From an uncultured Gemmatimonadales bacterium (lineage in GTDB: Bacteria; Gemmatimonadota; Gemmatimonadetes; Gemmatimonadales; GWC2-71-9), in contig CAWJIM010000023.1 of the NCBI GenBank assembly GCA_963842945.1, positions 416,001 through 480,000 of the forward strand: a stretch of 64,000 nucleotides of DNA, read 5' to 3'. This document shows positions 13,512 to 64,000 of the stretch, piece by piece (position 1 is the first letter of the stretch; each line of letters starts with the position of its first letter). Under the pieces are notes generated by a model that was not told the DNA's origin, ran no database searches, and saw only the letters and a list, made by a program, of their open reading frames with translations. The translations under genes and the position numbers were made by a program.

Positions 13512-14665
13512 TCCTGATCTGCCTGGGGGCGGTGCCAACCGCACTCGCCATGCTTGGGTGGGGTCTGACCCTGCGCTCGACAACCCAGGCGCCCGGGCCT
13601 CGTGATGCAATCGAAGGCGTGGCGCAATCAGGCCGGGTGCTGCTGCGCAGCATAGACTCCACCAGACTGCAGCCGACTGAACGCCATGCTCTCGCCGATC
13701 ACGCCACCAAGCTGAACACCGCGATCGGCCAGTTTCAGCGCGCCGACACCTTCAACCGGTACTATTACGCCGGCCTCGGTATTCTCATCCTTCTGCTGGG
13801 TGGGGCCTTTCTGTACGCCTCGGTGCGGTTCGGCGGGCACCTGTCTCGCCAGCTCAGCCGCCCCATCGAGGAGTTGATCGGGTGGACCGGAAATATCCGG
13901 CGGATGGAGCCGCTGCCGCCTGACAGCCCACGGCGGGGCGCTCCCGAGTTTACTGCCCTCCGAACAGCCCTCCGCGAAATGGCCGGTGGTCTCGAGCGGG
14001 CCCGAATGCAGGAGATCGAGGCGGAGCGGCTGCGAGCATTTCGGGAGACCGCCAGGCGGGTCGCACACGAGATGCGTAACCCGCTGACTCCGATCCGCCT
14101 GGCCATAGCTCAGCTGAGCCGATCGGCCGCTCCGGAGCAGGCCGAGGCCATCGACGTATTGGCCGCGGAGTCGGATCGGCTGGAGCAACTCGCCCGCGAG
14201 TTCACCGAATTCGGACGCCTGCCGGAAGGCCCGGCCGCTCCGGTCGACTTCACCGAGCTCCTGGCCGAGCTGACTCGCACTTCACTCCCACCCAGTATGA
14301 CCGCACGGCTGGAGCTCGACCCCAGAACACCCGTGCTGCTCGGCTACTACGACCCACTGCGCCGCGCGTTCAGCAACATTCTCCGAAATGCCGCTGAAGC
14401 GTGCGAGGGCAAAGGCGAGCTGGAGATCGTGGCCGCACCGTACAACGGCGGCGGAGTTCGAATCGAAATTCGGGACCACGGTCCGGGCGTTCCGCCGGAG
14501 ATGGCGCAGCACATCTTCGATCCCTATTGCACCGGTAAGCCGGGCGGGACCGGCCTTGGCCTCGCGCTGGTGAAGCAGACCATCGAAATGCATGGGGGCT
14601 CCATCGAGGTGGGCGACACGCCGGGGGGCGGCGCCACGTTCGTAGTTCAGATGGCGCCGACATGA
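13478..14665 (+). CDS. Membrane sensor histidine kinase (NtrY-like)
   Basis: Two TM, HAMP-like region, H-box AHEMRNPLTPI, N-box NILRNA, DHGPG, GTGLGL. Confidence 0.92.
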   Translation: MRLSFHQRILLILICLGAVPTALAMLGWGLTLRSTTQAPGPRDAIEGVAQSGRVLLRSIDSTRLQPTERHALADHATKLNTAIGQFQRADTFNRYYYAGLGILILLLGGAFLYASVRFGGHLSRQLSRPIEELIGWTGNIRRMEPLPPDSPRRGAPEFTALRTALREMAGGLERARMQEIEAERLRAFRETARRVAHEMRNPLTPIRLAIAQLSRSAAPEQAEAIDVLAAESDRLEQLAREFTEFGRLPEGPAAPVDFTELLAELTRTSLPPSMTARLELDPRTPVLLGYYDPLRRAFSNILRNAAEACEGKGELEIVAAPYNGGGVRIEIRDHGPGVPPEMAQHIFDPYCTGKPGGTGLGLALVKQTIEMHGGSIEVGDTPGGGATFVVQMAPT

Positions 14666-57684: not shown

Positions 57685-58758
57685 ATGGCCCAGCTGGTAC
57701 TCGGCATCGAGACCTCCTGCGACGAGACCTCCGCTTCGGTGGTCCGTTGGGAGAACGGTGTTTCCTCCCTGGCTTCCCTGATCATCCTCTCTCAAGATGT
57801 CCATCGCATCTTCGGCGGGGTCGTTCCCGAGCTGGCCAGCCGCGCGCACGTGCAGGCCATCGGATCCGTGGTCGAGCAGGCGCTGAGAGAAGCCGGTCTT
57901 GGCTTTCCGGACCTGGATGGCATCGCCGTAACCGCCGGTCCCGGATTGGTGGGGGCTCTCCTGGTCGGAGTGATGTACGGCAAGACGCTGGCATTCAGTG
58001 TCGATCGCCCGCTGATCGGGGTCAATCACCTGGAGGGACACCTCTTCGCGCCCACCCTGGAAGATCCGGAGTTCGAGCCTCCATTTATCGGACTGTTGGT
58101 GAGTGGCGGCCATACCATGCTGCTCGACGTTCCCCAGTGGGGAGAATACCGCCTGCTGGGACAGACTCTCGACGATGCCGCGGGTGAGGCATTCGACAAA
58201 GTGGCCAACCTCTTGGGGCTGGGCTATCCGGGAGGAGCAGCGATCGAACGCCTGGCCCGGGAAGGGCAGCCCGGCCGCTTCCGCTTTCCCAGTCCCATGC
58301 TGCAGGAGCTCGATCGCGAGGGCGCTAACCGCTACGCCTTCTCCTTCAGCGGCCTGAAGACGGCAGTGCTCCGGACCGTTCGGGGCGACGCCAGCGGCAA
58401 TCACTCCACTTCCCCACCCAATCCGGCCGATGTCGCACGAGGATTTCAGGATGCTGCCATCCAGGTACTCGTCGCCAAGACGGCGCATGCGGTCGAGGCG
58501 AGTGGGTACGGCCGAGCTATGGTCGGAGGCGGCGTCGCCTGCAATCGCGCTCTGGTAGCCCAACTGCGAGCGCGACTGGCGGGACAAGCCCGGGTCAGCG
58601 TAGCTTCACCGCGGCTCAACACCGACAATGCCGCCATGATCGCCGCTGCGGGAGCCTGGAGGCTTGCCCGGGGCGAGCGGAGCGGCCTCGATCTCGAGCC
58701 TCGGGACGATCTGCCACTCCCTGGCTTGGCCTTCCACTTACCTGGATCCGTCACATGA
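57685..58758 (+). CDS. tsaD: tRNA t6A37 threonylcarbamoyltransferase
   Basis: GIETSCDET, GGVVPELASRAH, NHLEGH, VSGGHT, DDAAGEAFDK, FSFSGLKT, TDNAAMI. Confidence 0.98.
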   Translation: MAQLVLGIETSCDETSASVVRWENGVSSLASLIILSQDVHRIFGGVVPELASRAHVQAIGSVVEQALREAGLGFPDLDGIAVTAGPGLVGALLVGVMYGKTLAFSVDRPLIGVNHLEGHLFAPTLEDPEFEPPFIGLLVSGGHTMLLDVPQWGEYRLLGQTLDDAAGEAFDKVANLLGLGYPGGAAIERLAREGQPGRFRFPSPMLQELDREGANRYAFSFSGLKTAVLRTVRGDASGNHSTSPPNPADVARGFQDAAIQVLVAKTAHAVEASGYGRAMVGGGVACNRALVAQLRARLAGQARVSVASPRLNTDNAAMIAAAGAWRLARGERSGLDLEPRDDLPLPGLAFHLPGSVT

Positions 58759-59606
58759 CCATCCACCCGTTCATCATCCACCTGGGCCCGCTCGAGGTCA
58801 CGGGGTACGGGCTGATGCTGATGGTGGCCTTTCTGATGGGGGGCTGGCTGATCGCCCGCCAGCTTCGAGAGCGTCAACTCCGGGAGGAGTATGCCGCTGA
58901 CATTGTGGCCGCCGCCGTCATCGGGGGAATCATCGGTGCGAAACTCTGGTATGTCGCGCTCACCCGAGACCCCGGCGCCCTGTTCTCCCGGGGTGGACTC
59001 GTATGGTATGGCGGGTTCATCGGCGGAGCTCTCGCGGTGATGCTGAATGGCTGGCGCTTGAAGGTGCCCCTGCGATGGACCATGCAGGTCGCAGCTCCAG
59101 CATTGGCGGCGGCGTACGCGCTCGGCCGGGTAGGGTGTTTTCTGGTGAACGACGACTACGGAAGACCTAGCAATCTCCCCTGGGCGGTGCGCTTCCCCGA
59201 GGGGCTGCCGCCGTCGACTGCCGGAAATCTGCACCAGCTCTTTGGAGTGCCGATTCCGGCGGGCACCGACCCCTCCACGGTCCTGGCCGTCCATCCGACT
59301 CAGCTGTACGAAGTGGCGGCCATGCTGCTGGCCTTTGGCGTCTTGTGGGTCCTGCGGAAGCAGGGCAAGCCGGTCGGCTGGCTTTTCGGCTTATACCTGG
59401 TCTTTGCGGGAGTGGAGCGCTTCCTGGTCGAGATCGTGCGGGCCAAGGACGATCGTTTTCTGGGACCCTTCACCCTGGCTCAGCTGACCAGCGTGATTCT
59501 GGTGGCTATCGGAGGAAGCCTGCTAACGCTTTGGAGAACACGAGAGGGCCCGCTGCCCGGCTTCTATCTGGAAACTGGCAGGAAGCCCCCGCCGTCAAAG
59601 ATCTAG
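58755..59606 (+). CDS. lgt: Prolipoprotein diacylglyceryl transferase
   Basis: YG, GGLVWYGG, GRVGCF, YG, HPTQLYE, RFLVE. Confidence 0.93.
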   Translation: MTIHPFIIHLGPLEVTGYGLMLMVAFLMGGWLIARQLRERQLREEYAADIVAAAVIGGIIGAKLWYVALTRDPGALFSRGGLVWYGGFIGGALAVMLNGWRLKVPLRWTMQVAAPALAAAYALGRVGCFLVNDDYGRPSNLPWAVRFPEGLPPSTAGNLHQLFGVPIPAGTDPSTVLAVHPTQLYEVAAMLLAFGVLWVLRKQGKPVGWLFGLYLVFAGVERFLVEIVRAKDDRFLGPFTLAQLTSVILVAIGGSLLTLWRTREGPLPGFYLETGRKPPPSKI

Positions 59607-59709
59607 TCGCCTGCACAAGCACGTAAGCACAGACAGCTTAGTCCATTCCTCGAATTTCCGTACAGCATCTTTACGACTTTTTGCACTCCAGCACCTTCCC
59701 ATCTTCCCC

Positions 59710-59738
59710 GCTAAGTAACTCAGGCGTCGTTGCTTAGC
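59710..59738. promoter_or_regulatory. Inverted-repeat protein-binding site (IHF/activator-like) upstream of the sigma54 promoter
   Basis: GCTAAGTAAC-N9-GTTGCTTAGC, 9/10 palindromic. Confidence 0.45.
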
Positions 59739-59752
59739 CCAGATGAGCCAAA

Positions 59753-59768
59753 TGGCACTAGCCTTGCT
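59753..59768 (+). promoter_or_regulatory. sigma54 (-24/-12) promoter
   Basis: TGGCACTAGCCTTGCT is an exact match to TGGCAC-N5-TTGCW. Confidence 0.85.
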
Positions 59769-59778
59769 TTACTAATGC

Positions 59779-59920
59779 CCGGGAAGCCCAAGGGCTTCAC
59801 ACGAAAGTGGTAGGTCGAAGAAGGGTGGAGCGGGCACTTCGGCCCGTCTCCGTAAACTCAGGGGGCGATCTACCACTCACTTACGCAAACGGCCCGTCAT
59901 CTGACGGGCCGTTTGCATTT
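59779..59920 (+). ncRNA. Candidate sigma54-dependent small RNA (~140 nt)
   Basis: Lies between a consensus sigma54 promoter and a terminator, with no ORF downstream of the predicted +1; hairpin 59783-59798, 12-bp helix 59806-59817/59866-59877, inner hairpin 59827-59851. Confidence 0.65.
59885..59920. terminator. Intrinsic terminator, possibly bidirectional
   Basis: Perfect 15-bp inverted repeat GCAAACGGCCCGTCA-TC-TGACGGGCCGTTTGC followed by ATTT, between convergent transcripts. Confidence 0.8.
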
Positions 59921-59933
59921 GCTCCGCGAGGCG

Positions 59934-60416
59934 TCAGGCTAGCAGATCTCGCTGGGCTACAATAATCCCGTCGCCGTCTGCATAAAGAAACGAGCCAGGG
60001 AGAAATGCCACTCCAGCAAAGGTAAGCGGGGTTCCTCGGGTGCCGGTTCCCTGTTTGCCGCTCCGGAGCGGTACGCTGTTGAGGGCCCGTATTCCGACCG
60101 GGATTTGACTCAGCTCCGCCGAGTCCCGTACGCTGCCATTGATGACCAGTCCCGCCCAGCCGTTCGCGTAAGCCACGCCGGCAAGCCGTCCCCCCACGAG
60201 CGCGCAACGACGCGAGCCGCCACCGTCGATTACGAGGACTCGCCCCCCTCCAGCGGTCTCCAGGATCTGCCGAACGAGCGCATTGTCCTCAAATACGCTC
60301 AGGGTCTCGATCGGGCCGCTGAACTTCGCCAGGCCGCCATACTCCCGAAACTCCGGCTGGGCAACCTGCACCAGCTCAGGGTAGCCATCGCACAGATCAG
60401 CGGTGGTGAACTCCAC
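59934..60416 (-). CDS. rraA: RraA family protein (RNase E regulator / HMG aldolase-like)
   Basis: TADLCD, FEDNALVR, VLVIDGGGSRRCALVG, NGWAG..G.VRD, YADGDGII. Confidence 0.9.
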   Translation of the reverse strand: MEFTTADLCDGYPELVQVAQPEFREYGGLAKFSGPIETLSVFEDNALVRQILETAGGGRVLVIDGGGSRRCALVGGRLAGVAYANGWAGLVINGSVRDSAELSQIPVGIRALNSVPLRSGKQGTGTRGTPLTFAGVAFLPGSFLYADGDGIIVAQRDLLA

Positions 60417-62546
60417 TCAGCTCTTGCGAGAGCGCGACTCAGGCGCGTCGGTGAGGTTTCCCTTCATCCGCTCGACTTCGGAGCGCATCTCGCTCAAGTC
60501 CGCCTCCATCCGCTCGAGAGAGCGGAGCAGCTCCCGGCTTGCCTCCGGGGGAACAGGGGCAGGGATCGCTAGCGGCGGTTCCCGGCGGAGCGGCTCGGGT
60601 GGCGGTGATCCAGCCCGATGGCGACGACGGGGCTCTATGAGAAAGGTCCAGGCAAGGGCCAGGATGAGAAGAGCGACCAGGACCCCCTGCGCCAGCAGCG
60701 ACTCGACGGTGGGGTAGATACCCAGCGCAGGGAGCTCGGGGCGCACCAACGACGATGGTGGTCGAGATCAGCCCCCCTCCTGTAGCTCGGCCACAGCTTT
60801 CCCGGCAAAAACAAATGCCATGTAGTACAGGAATGCGCTGGTCACCCCGAAGAAGGGCTTCAACGGAAGCCGCAGGCCGAACCGGTTGATGGCCAGGTAA
60901 ACCACCGACCATGACCAGTGACCCGAGCAGGATGCCGGCCAGGATCGGCATGGTGGCGGCAGGTGAGCCGCCAGTCACGAACAGAGCCTTGTAGAAGAGC
61001 ACGGTCTCGAAGCCCTCGCGGTACACCGCCAGAAACGCCGCCGACGCGAGCGCCAGACCGGAGCCGCTCGTGAGCGCGTCCTGCACCTTGCTCTTCACGA
61101 AGTGGTTCCACTTGGCCACCTCCATTTTCGAGAGCAGCCAGTAGCTCACATAGAAGAGCACCACGGTAGCGAGGGCCATGGTCAGGCCCTCCAGCGCCTC
61201 TCGTTTGGCGGAGGTCAGGTGAAAGATGGTCTCCAGCGCAAACGCGGTGAGCAGGCTGGCCGCGGCCGCGGCACCGACTCCGATGTGAATGTCGCGCTTG
61301 CGATGGGCCGCTCCCATCTTGGCCAGAAAGGTCATCAGGGCGCCCACCAGCAGAATTGCCTCGAAGCCTTCCCGCAGCAGAATGACAAACGATTGTACGA
61401 ACAGGTTTACGTGCGGACGGCTGGTCGGCCAGTGTCCGCTCGGCGTTCTCCAGATCGGCGTCGAGCTGCCGGCGAATTCGGTCCAGCTCCGCGCCGGTGG
61501 CTCCTCCGGCCACTCGGGTACGCAGCGACGCAAATCCGGCCTCCAGGTCTGCGGCCAGCCCGGGATTCTTGGCTCGGACCGACCGCTCCACCTGCTCGAA
61601 CGTCATGTACGCGTCGAAGGCCCGTGTGCTCGCCGAGGTGTCACCGGTCCGAGCCAGGGCATAAACCGATTCAATCTGGGCTCGCACCTCGGTGAAAACC
61701 CGGGCATCGGCAGCGGCGGTGCGCATCCGCCCGAAATCGACGGACGGCTGCAACCCTGGCGAGACCGGTTGCTCCGTCATTCCGCTGCCCCAGAGCGGCG
61801 AGCAACTGGGTATCGGACATGCGGCCGGTACTTCCAAAGGACTGAAGCGCGGGGGGAACGCTCCCCGAGTCGTTGGGGCAGGCGAAGTACACTGGCATAG
61901 AGTGCAACGGCCCAGCGGTCCTCTGCCGACAACCGGGTCTCGAAGGCCGGCATGGCCGTCCCGACGACGCCGATGCTCACTCGGCGGTAATAATCCAGGG
62001 GCGATTGATCTCGGAGCGCGGCGCGCATCCGACGAGGTCGGCGGGTTTGGGATCCATCCCTTTTGCCAGTGGCCCATCGCCGCGGCCAAGGTCTCCGTGA
62101 CAGGAGGCGCAGTTGGTCCGGAAGACCTCGGCGCCCCGTGCCAGCGACGGCGCCTCAGGTGGAACCTGATCGAGTGGGACGCCGAGCGGGGCGAAGCGAG
62201 CTGTCAAGCCGGCTTACGCGGGCGTCCAGCGAATCCGGAGAGCCAGCAGACTCACGAGGGCTATCAGCGAATCGATACGGCTGATAGTGCGGGAGGCGGA
62301 ATTTGGCGGGCAAGCAGGGCCGCGGATCGCCGAGACTCCTGGAGGAACAGCCGAGCTTCGTCCACTTCGGCCTGAGACACGATCCGGCCGTTGACGATCC
62401 CAACTCGGTATTCCTGTGACGGCCAGTTGCGCCGTAGCCGCGACTCGGCGAACAGCAGGCGCCACGTCGGGCGTGGAATCGGGAGCTTGGAGTGGAGCGA
62501 CAAGGGTGGACGCAACCAAGGCGGCCGCGCTGAGAATCATTTTCAT
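60417..62546 (-). CDS. Cytochrome c-FTR1 family iron permease fusion (PbrT/EfeU-like), multiply frameshifted
   Basis: Signal peptide, CASCHG..GRGDG heme motif, MPAF, two REGFE motifs, LGIYPTVE, spread over several frames. Confidence 0.85.
62531..62545. promoter_or_regulatory. Fur-box-like operator overlapping the start of the FTR1 gene
   Basis: TGAGAAT-C-ATTTTCA 7-1-7 inverted repeat; TAGTTT -10 element upstream on the minus strand. Confidence 0.65.
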
Positions 62547-62606
62547 CCAGTTTGAAAACGCTGAATTAAACTAGAGTAAGAAGGTCGGAATTGAAAGTGA
62601 GCCGCC

Positions 62607-62994
62607 CTAGGGGGCCTCCACGATAGCAATGGCGCCGGCTGATAGGGCCGAATGGGTGAGCGAGATCTTGATCGCGAGTCCGCCGCTGCTCCTGAGAAAT
62701 GCGCGCGGCTAGCCCGTGAAGGCGAATGGCCGGACGTCCTTCAGCGTCCCGAGATACCTCGATCTCCCGCCAGCCGACGCCCCTCGCGCCGGGCAGGGAC
62801 TGCATGGCCTTGTACACGGCCTCCTTGGCCGCGATCCGAGCCGCCGCGTGTCCGGTCGCGTCGGGGCGACTCGCCAGATACTGGCGCTCATGCTCGGAGA
62901 AGAACCTGGCCATGGCCTGCTCGCCCTTGTCAGCGAAAAGGTCCCTGACCCGTTGAAGATCCACCAGGTCGATGCCGACTCCGACGAAGGTCAC
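62607..62994 (-). CDS. acpS: Holo-[acyl-carrier-protein] synthase, frameshift near the 3' end
   Basis: GVGIDLV, ARIAAKEAVYKA, WREIEV...GRP; ISLTH in the next frame. Confidence 0.9.
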
Positions 62995-63756
62995 AGGTAA
63001 TTCCACCACAGCTCGGCCAAACCCTGCAGCGGCCCGGGCACAGGCAGGTAGCCGCCCAACACCAATCCGAGATAGCCGAGCAGCAGCAGAAGCAGAGCCG
63101 TAGCCAGCCAGAGTGGCCAGGTCGGCCGCTTCCAGGTTCTCACTCGTTCGATGTCCTGCCTCCAGCGCTCCTGCTCTCTCCGGGCCGATTCGGACAGCGC
63201 CAGCCAGGCGGATTCGAGCCGACGCGCCGCCGTCGCGAGCGCGATTTGCCATTCCTCCTGTCCCAGACGCCCGCGAGCGCCCGACGCGGCGGCGGCCGGC
63301 ACGGTCTGCTCCAGTGCGTCGAGCGCGCTCACGAAGCCGGCGCCCCCACTGCCGAGGCGCGAGCCGATCGCCCGAATGTCCTCGGGGGTCAGCAACAATG
63401 GCTGCAGCCGCCGCTCGGGAAGCCGGGACTCGATGGCGGCCGCACGCATGCGAGCGTTCACCACGTCGGCCAGCCGCTGGGCGCAGGCGGCAACTGCGCG
63501 TCTCCCAGCGATCCAGCCAGCTAACCCGACTGAGCGAGGCTATGGCACCCTGGCGGTCGCCCGCCGCCATGAACGACCGGGCGGCCCCGGCCATGTCGAA
63601 AATTCCGCTGACCAGCCCCAGTCGAATGTCCTCGAGCACGACGCCGAGCGCCCCGGAGTAATCCGGGGTGGAAGGCGGGTCGCTCAGCCGGCCCAGCGAT
63701 GGGCCCAGCTCGGGCACGGTCCAGGTTTCAGTTGAGGCGGGAGGTTGGGTCACCAC
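62991..63756 (-). CDS. Hypothetical protein with C-terminal TM helix, frameshift at ~63495
   Basis: N-part of ORF 62566..63756 joins ORF 62991..63464; stop overlaps the acpS start (GTGA). Confidence 0.6.
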
Positions 63757-63768
63757 AGTGGCCTGGGC

Positions 63769-64000
63769 TCAGGCGAGGATGGAATGCAGCACGCTTTCGG
63801 TGTCGGCCAAATCCTCGAAAACCACGTGGGGTCCGCAGGCGTGCAGATCGGCTACGGAATAGTCTCCAGTGGCGACCGCAATGGCTCTGGCCTCGATGCA
63901 GTTGCCGCAAGCAATGTCGGCCGGGGTATCACCGATGATGACGACCGCCTCTCCTCGGGGCTCCCGCTCGAAGTAGCGCGCGGCCCGGCGGGCGGCAATG
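63769..64000 (-). CDS. HAD-family hydrolase, 5' part outside the window
   Basis: VVIIGDTPADIACG..ARAIAVATG motif IV; stop at 63769-63771. Confidence 0.85.
   Translation of the reverse strand, partial: IAARRAARYFEREPRGEAVVIIGDTPADIACGNCIEARAIAVATGDYSVADLHACGPHVVFEDLADTESVLHSILA

Follow-up and report, generated by a model that had tools for sequence, protein, structure and literature searches.

A candidate sigma54-promoted structured small RNA gene downstream of lgt in Gemmatimonadales

Within a 64,000-nucleotide stretch of the genome of an uncultured Gemmatimonadales bacterium (here, the window), an exact sigma54 consensus (TGGCACTAGCCTTGCT) lies between lgt and a convergent RraA-like gene, raising the question of what this promoter transcribes. 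A first-pass annotation made from the sequence alone had proposed a structured small RNA gene belonging to no named family, and all the features that it listed, including both flanking genes, were found in place. Conservation, covariation, promoter anatomy, and negative Rfam searches support a stand-alone, undescribed sigma54-promoted structured RNA gene. We put the probability that this conserved, folded noncoding gene is real at about 0.92, with its transcription predicted.

Anatomy and conservation of the RNA locus

The region spanning positions 59775 to 59925 folds at -79.6 kcal/mol (z = -6.7), a value reached by none of 200 shuffled sequences, as expected from the earlier claim of a structured noncoding stretch. 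The GAAGCC-CAAG-GGCTTC hairpin, the 12-bp helix, and the purine-rich bubble of that description were all recovered (Table 1), the bubble as a 5-by-6 purine internal loop made of AAGAA (59818 to 59822) and AGGGGG (59860 to 59865), the latter being predicted to be unpaired with an opening cost of 0.0 kcal/mol. The apical C-UUCG-G hairpin did not hold up: the predicted loop comprises 6 nt (ACUUCG) closed by the C59835-G59842 pair, and UUCG is not conserved, so this is not a cUUCGg tetraloop motif. Similarly, a hairpin does occupy the site of the alleged perfect 15-bp terminator, but it has 14 bp, a 4-nt loop, and a tail of only three U residues, and a simple terminator scan did not call it. When 16 homologues were folded one by one, P1 formed a 6- to 7-bp hairpin in 13; it is missing in L336 and L339, and its 56.5% pairing in the alignment count reflects a misregistered hand structure, also used in model R1, for which the single folds serve as a re-check. 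The RNA is single copy in this genome, a search for a conserved small-peptide reading frame within it found none, and a G-quadruplex reading of the G-run is not favored.

Table 1. Features of the RNA locus and associated candidates (window positions unless a contig is named)
Feature	Coordinates	Strand	Basis or remark
lgt (prolipoprotein diacylglyceryl transferase)	58755..59606	+	Pfam PF01790, E 1.5e-53; synteny
Distal activator-binding palindrome (predicted), CGTCAAAGATCTAGTCG	59593..59609	.	-160 from promoter T; PWM score 9.3
TAAG..CTTA element, weak	59624..59641	.	Between the two activator sites; by eye, low confidence
Proximal activator-binding palindrome (predicted), CGTACAGCATCTTTACG	59659..59675	.	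-94
IHF-like palindrome	59710..59738	.	Putative bending site
sigma54 -24/-12 promoter	59753..59768	+	183/206 distinct units carry one
Predicted RNA, ~140 nt	59779..59920	+	Start inferred from -12 box
P1 hairpin, GAAGCC/GGCUUC	59783..59798	+	Variable, dispensable
P2 central module	59806..59877	+	12-bp closing helix, internal loop, 4-bp GGGU/ACUC, variable bulge, apical stem
G-run, CUCAGGGGGCG	59857..59867	+	Conserved more deeply than any other letters; possible seed or protein-binding site
Terminator-like hairpin, 14 bp, short U tail	59885..59916	+	99% of cells paired; 4/12 pairs with two-sided changes
RraA-like gene, convergent	59934..60416	-	Pfam PF03737
Candidate activator	G000:C23:481463-482809 (= L494:6464-7810)	-	Receiver-AAA+-HTH_8 protein, GAFTDA loop
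Candidate CCCCCUGAG leaders	G000:C3:162913+, C5:175054+, C16:249557-	as given	Predicted

Conservation in relatives and covariation of the helices, which the first-pass annotation had named as checks, were both found. DNA of the RNA gene was matched in 52 of 60 genomes of the same genus, with the lgt/rraA synteny kept, and the core model matched 32 of 150 family genomes, of which one was a chance hit (31/150). An exact 20-mer recurred in at least 119 stretches of the species collection; among the 80 matches listed, 79 came from Gemmatimonadales, Gemmatimonadaceae, or Gemmatimonadota and one from Actinomycetes. A gapped motif retrieved 120 metagenome stretches, and the closing helix was present in 90 of 128 motif matches. 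Across 42 diverse P2 cores, 98.4% of the cells were paired and 12 of 24 pairs carried two-sided changes, which none of 500 shuffles reached, these counts being inflated by kinship. In the closing helix, both partners of a pair change together (GUGGUAGGUC, GUCCCAGGAC, and GUGAUAGGCC) around constant loop letters, in rows chosen by a pattern that contains those letters. Likewise, G-AAGAA-G and C-AGGGGG-C are invariant or nearly so in the 42 copies while the flanking helices covary, an invariance that is partly built in because the patterns used to collect most copies contain them. Core model R2, run on 150 genomes of the phylum, gave no convincing match in any of the 11 families sampled besides f1; its matches in G116 and G234 were weak and attributable to chance, and R1 matches at four loci read in f2 were terminators. 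The single viral-contig match fell within an unrelated long ORF and was discarded as chance, and with it phage carriage.

That the element is not a free RNA, being instead a 3' leader of lgt plus its terminator or a DNA element, is very improbable. Its position, nearly always directly after lgt and on the same strand, would suit such a reading. Against it, the element carries a complete enhancer-IHF-sigma54 promoter of its own, in whose place genus g25 has sigma70-type promoters, and the alignment contains one-sided G-U/G-C changes typical of RNA. Moreover, G140 carries three RNA genes, one of them an extra copy on another contig, and in most of the noncarriers read, lgt abuts the next gene, G052, which belongs to the genus of the window, being a clean loss.

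The two neighbors differ in constancy. lgt is the conserved upstream neighbor, and the predicted distal activator site reaches into its final codons. The RraA-like gene was rejected as a partner: it is missing at this place in other genera, with an FTR1 gene directly next in L167, L170, and L173, and is thus not part of the system. Iron-uptake genes recur at the locus, with FTR1 nearby in f1 and feoA/feoB-like genes in f2, where a Fur-box-like promoter was seen by eye ahead of them after lgt (L357, from G081). In the window, the FTR1 iron-permease/cytochrome c gene and the genes beyond it (60417 to 64000) seem to be broken up among several reading frames, and frameshifts also affect some activator genes in other parts of the assembly; assembly indels are the likely cause of both.

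Promoter architecture and a candidate activator

The sigma54 box is the only exact TGGCAC-N5-TTGCW match in the 4.3-Mb genome. Within the window it is the sole match even with one mismatch allowed, a count that alone proves little because shuffled sequences average 1.76 matches at that laxity. It was present in 29 of the first 30 loci, the remaining one being a contig end. The 206 distinct units with enough upstream DNA include, besides the sigma54 class, 14 with sigma70-type promoters (genus g25 and similar) and 9 left unassigned by pattern, several of which have shifted or variant boxes.

The element begins ~120 bp further upstream than first claimed, two palindromes having been overlooked. 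These predicted activator sites are 17 bp long (consensus YGTMNA-N5-TNKACR), and in 173 upstream regions the second one falls most often between -158 and -162. Scores above 5 occur in 87% of these regions versus 1.7% of shuffles, the scored loci being among the family loci on which the PWM was trained. The proximal site is the only match to the combined enhancer and sigma54 pattern in the genome. The palindrome just upstream of the promoter does have the 9/10 arms attributed to it, but an IHF-type bending site is a better reading of it than an activator site, since an IHF-like word peaks there: the best match to the IHF consensus, as given in the part of PMC3045617 consulted, falls at -28/-29 in 79 of 176 regions, with scores of 8 to 9 of 9 in 25 regions versus 3.2 in shuffles. 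We regard this bending-site assignment as likely, and the weak TAAG..CTTA element is possibly a second site of this type. Strong enhancer-like palindromes also occur in AT-rich gaps at G000:C23:206745 and 206857, C24:74358, and C8:17892; the same activator may bind there too, and no well-placed sigma54 box accompanies the enhancer-like palindromes found elsewhere in this genome.

The genome encodes ~11 enhancer-binding proteins. The first-pass annotation had suggested, as one possibility, the GAFTGA regulator at 14662. This candidate was rejected: its orthologs keep the GAFTGA/GSFTGA loop in 4/4 genomes, whether the RNA promoter is of the sigma54 or sigma70 type or the RNA is absent. The GAFTGA loop contacts sigma54, according to the part of PMC7057263 consulted. 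The probable activator is a response regulator with a GAFTDA loop encoded next to the locus, 5.5 kb from the RNA and ~1.5 kb past the window end. Its orthologue was sought in 51 regions, 15 of which gave no match and one a receiver-only match. Among the 31 RNA carriers in which both features were read, whose genera are not independent, the enhancer score was at least 7.0 in all 21 with an intact GAFTDA/GAYTDA loop and at most 6.6 in all 10 with a decayed one. The latter comprise five sigma70 carriers, four g21 genomes with CCGG palindromes at their promoters, and G283, and in the decayed copies Walker B is altered as well. Predictions of the loop from the enhancer proved correct in six of six further genomes, both intact (G261, G165, G062, and G068) and decayed (GAIPGA in G272 and GAFADA in G269). 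The enhancer is also carried by 8/8 sister loci of family f3, which lay outside PWM training, and the loop is decayed in four family noncarriers that have the activator orthologue. Two genomes are exceptions: G072 has an intact loop and no RNA at lgt, and G052, despite its loss of the RNA, retains a working-looking GAFTEA loop.

In 13 of 42 regions, the gene immediately preceding the activator encodes a GAF/PAS histidine kinase; in the genus of the window, the two are not adjacent. We infer that this kinase would phosphorylate the activator, which would then bind the two upstream palindromes and, assisted by IHF-mediated looping, turn on the sigma54 promoter and hence transcription of the RNA. 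A conserved site for G-run pairing was sought on the activator's own leader, as a sign of feedback, and none was found.

The activator family offers further observations. Its HTH is near invariant while the GAFTDA loop and Walker B decay differently across lineages (L465-L474, L479, and L486-L491); the decaying copies are possibly a series of conversions to sigma54-independent regulators. In g21 (regions upstream of L173, L174, L176, and L338) and in G272, the sigma54 box is kept and CCGG-type palindromes stand in place of the enhancer, which implies capture by another activator. In G072 (L576:856-2623, on G072:C273), divergent sigma54-like boxes flank the same enhancer; one lies ahead of two DUF4402 genes and the ORF after them, the other ahead of a small protein that looks secreted. 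We take the DUF4402 genes to be pilus parts, and their position suggests that the activator also drives surface-structure genes.

Natural variants and possible modes of action

Two P2 modules occur in one predicted transcript in G119 and G184 (genus g21), and tandem modules under one promoter are also found in several metagenome loci. A divergent copy in G278 keeps the closing helix and CAGGGGGCG and has lost AAGAA. A shorter RNA follows lgt in 13/13 genomes of one f3 genus and was read out in 12; it has a sigma54 box, a hairpin with GAGUUCCUGAGGGGGG, and a terminator, and keeps the G-run as CUGAGGGGGGCG. The AGGGGG(G)CG run is all that the f1 RNA and this sister share in sequence. Common to the three structural contexts, it is the only letter-level constant. 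Sister model R3 found f3 only, its f6 and f10 matches being terminators, and it recognizes the f1 core no further than the terminator; homology between the two forms therefore rests on locus, enhancer, and G-run. One assembly (G088) holds two different sister copies (L361 and L377), which may be paralogs or a product of bin contamination (4%).

Hfq, CsrA, and RapZ were each sought in five genomes (this one 87% complete, the other four 95 to 100%) and found in none, with positive controls in every case (5/14 for Hfq). The mechanism must therefore do without the usual helpers, relying on a G-rich seed that needs no chaperone or on a new RNA-binding protein. The hosts are soil-type bacteria.

We tentatively favor, at slightly less than even odds, antisense pairing of the G-run to C-rich mRNA leaders. 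The RNA would act in trans, its exposed G-run pairing with C-rich CCCCCUGA just ahead of ribosome-binding sites. AGGGGG would nucleate the pairing; opening of the 4-bp helix, at a predicted cost of 3.9 kcal/mol versus -17.8 for the 9-mer duplex, would let it spread into CUC, and the stable stems would replace Hfq as a scaffold. When the 7-mers along the RNA are compared for enrichment upstream of starts predicted in this genome by a crude gene caller, the G-run complement belongs to the highest peaks (2.3- to 2.4-fold); two terminator 7-mers peak likewise (2.4- to 2.6-fold). Ahead of SD anchors, the complement comes third among the 64 CCCCCNNN words (5 versus 1.1). CCCCCTG-SD-ATG occurs at 1.43 versus 0.93 per Mb in 32 carriers versus 119 noncarriers (1.54-fold, one visible self-hit dropped), with a control word also enriched in carriers (1.21-fold; ratio of ratios, 1.28; p = 0.057), and the looser pattern CCCCTGAG-ATG was not enriched in carriers (0.93-fold). 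A hand count of CCCCCTGAG-GGA-ATG gave 20 sites in 107 Mb of carriers, after 10 self-hits were dropped, versus 51 in 427 Mb (1.56-fold per Mb), the mismatch control giving 87 versus 335 (1.03-fold). A stronger AGGA SD was counted by hand, post hoc, in 13/20 carrier versus 11/51 noncarrier sites. From genus to genus, the candidate sites precede genes that are not orthologs, and the strongest individual candidate, the small MATKLDK gene, has the site in only 6 of 30 homologue loci. Its 67-residue product, encoded at G000:C16:249335-249535 (-) and C21:55372-55551 (-), occurs in 55 of 60 genomes of the genus, sometimes in two copies, and has no NCBIfam match.

The scarcity of conserved targets, with none found among homologue loci or in the cross-genus comparison, would also suit a decoy whose purine internal loop titrates an RNA-binding regulator, a reading that we consider rather unlikely. 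GlmY, CrcZ, and CsrB act as decoys for their partners. Protein binding accounts better than antisense pairing for loop strands and much of a helix that are near invariant, allowing for the collection patterns, between covarying flanks, and for modules in tandem, and the three copies in G140 also suit it. However, the loop architecture is lost in G278 and in the f3 sister, where the G-run alone is kept, no partner gene lies at the locus, and the three helper proteins were found in none of the five genomes sampled. A fuller version is somewhat less likely still: the RNA would be the decoy half of an undescribed RNA-protein switch operating without Hfq, CsrA, or RapZ, and a dedicated two-component system, which in other members of the order would drive pilin-like surface genes, would have it as its chief output.

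Acting as an RNA sponge or a mimic of the Shine-Dalgarno sequence, the G-run could instead capture a C-rich regulatory RNA or the anti-SD end of 16S rRNA. Pairing of AGGGGG with CCUCCU needs a single wobble, and CACTCAGG, close to the ACUCAGG of the RNA, is the top word before SD anchors, in a window that includes the first SD bases. The G-run is not followed by a conserved start codon, however, and no C-rich partner RNA appeared among intergenic matches, making this an improbable function. Antisense pairing remains our working mechanism.

Relation to known regulatory RNAs

Rfam 15, searched at permissive and gathering thresholds, returned no family at or above the gathering threshold, as anticipated by the first-pass annotation. 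The best match, sX6 (RF02225; 26.6 bits against a cut-off of 40), is limited to the terminator hairpin and generic, and five divergent loci gave no match at E<=1. Literature searches at the level of listings revealed no described Gemmatimonadota small RNA or matching motif.

In the Qrr/LuxO, CrcZ/CbrB, and CsrB/RsmZ systems, a small RNA is the output of a signaling activator, the decoy types have repeated modules, and Hfq or CsrA is needed. The present RNA differs in having neither GGA-loop nor A-rich repeats and no feedback site on the activator leader. A CsrB/RsmZ-type decoy was rejected: the single GGAG lies in a stem and varies to GAAG, and CsrA is found in 0/5 genomes.

The closest systems resemble the locus in wiring. 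As far as the consulted part of PMC5684412 describes it, myxobacterial Pxr, with PxrR/PxrK, has three stem-loops and a predicted sigma54 promoter, is lineage restricted, and has a dedicated NtrC-type two-component system encoded nearby, all as seen or predicted here. Identity with Pxr was rejected: its model (RF01812), run on the whole genome, scored at best 17.9 bits elsewhere and nothing at this locus, and its consensus has a C-rich first loop, unlike this G-rich module. GlmY/GlmZ of Enterobacteriaceae, with GlrR (QseF)/GlrK, is likewise a sigma54 sRNA system with palindromic sites >90 bp upstream and IHF sites nearby, as far as covered by the consulted part of PMC3045617; there too, sigma70 promoters replace or overlap the sigma54 promoter in some genera. 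GlrR binds TGTC-N10-GACA, one base apart in spacing from the YGTM-N9-KACR palindromes seen here (PMC3045617, same part). The candidate activator nevertheless scores far under the GlrR cut-off (283 versus 763 bits), no Rfam sequence or structure match to GlmY/GlmZ was obtained, and, unlike in that system, RapZ and Hfq were not found in the genomes here.

The predicted wiring is nearly complete: it comprises a promoter, an IHF-type bending site, both activator palindromes, a candidate for the activator itself, and a kinase in some genera. The natural variants (loss, the sigma70 switch, a different enhancer, tandem modules, and a shortened sister) show a sigma54 activator decaying upon target rewiring. 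With sigma54/bEBP-driven sRNAs the locus shares a conserved -24/-12 box at the right distance, upstream sites matched through co-occurrence to an activator with an intact GAFTGA-type loop, and a conserved, covarying structure with indels and no coding frame. By these comparative criteria, it is an uncatalogued sRNA family of a known regulatory class.
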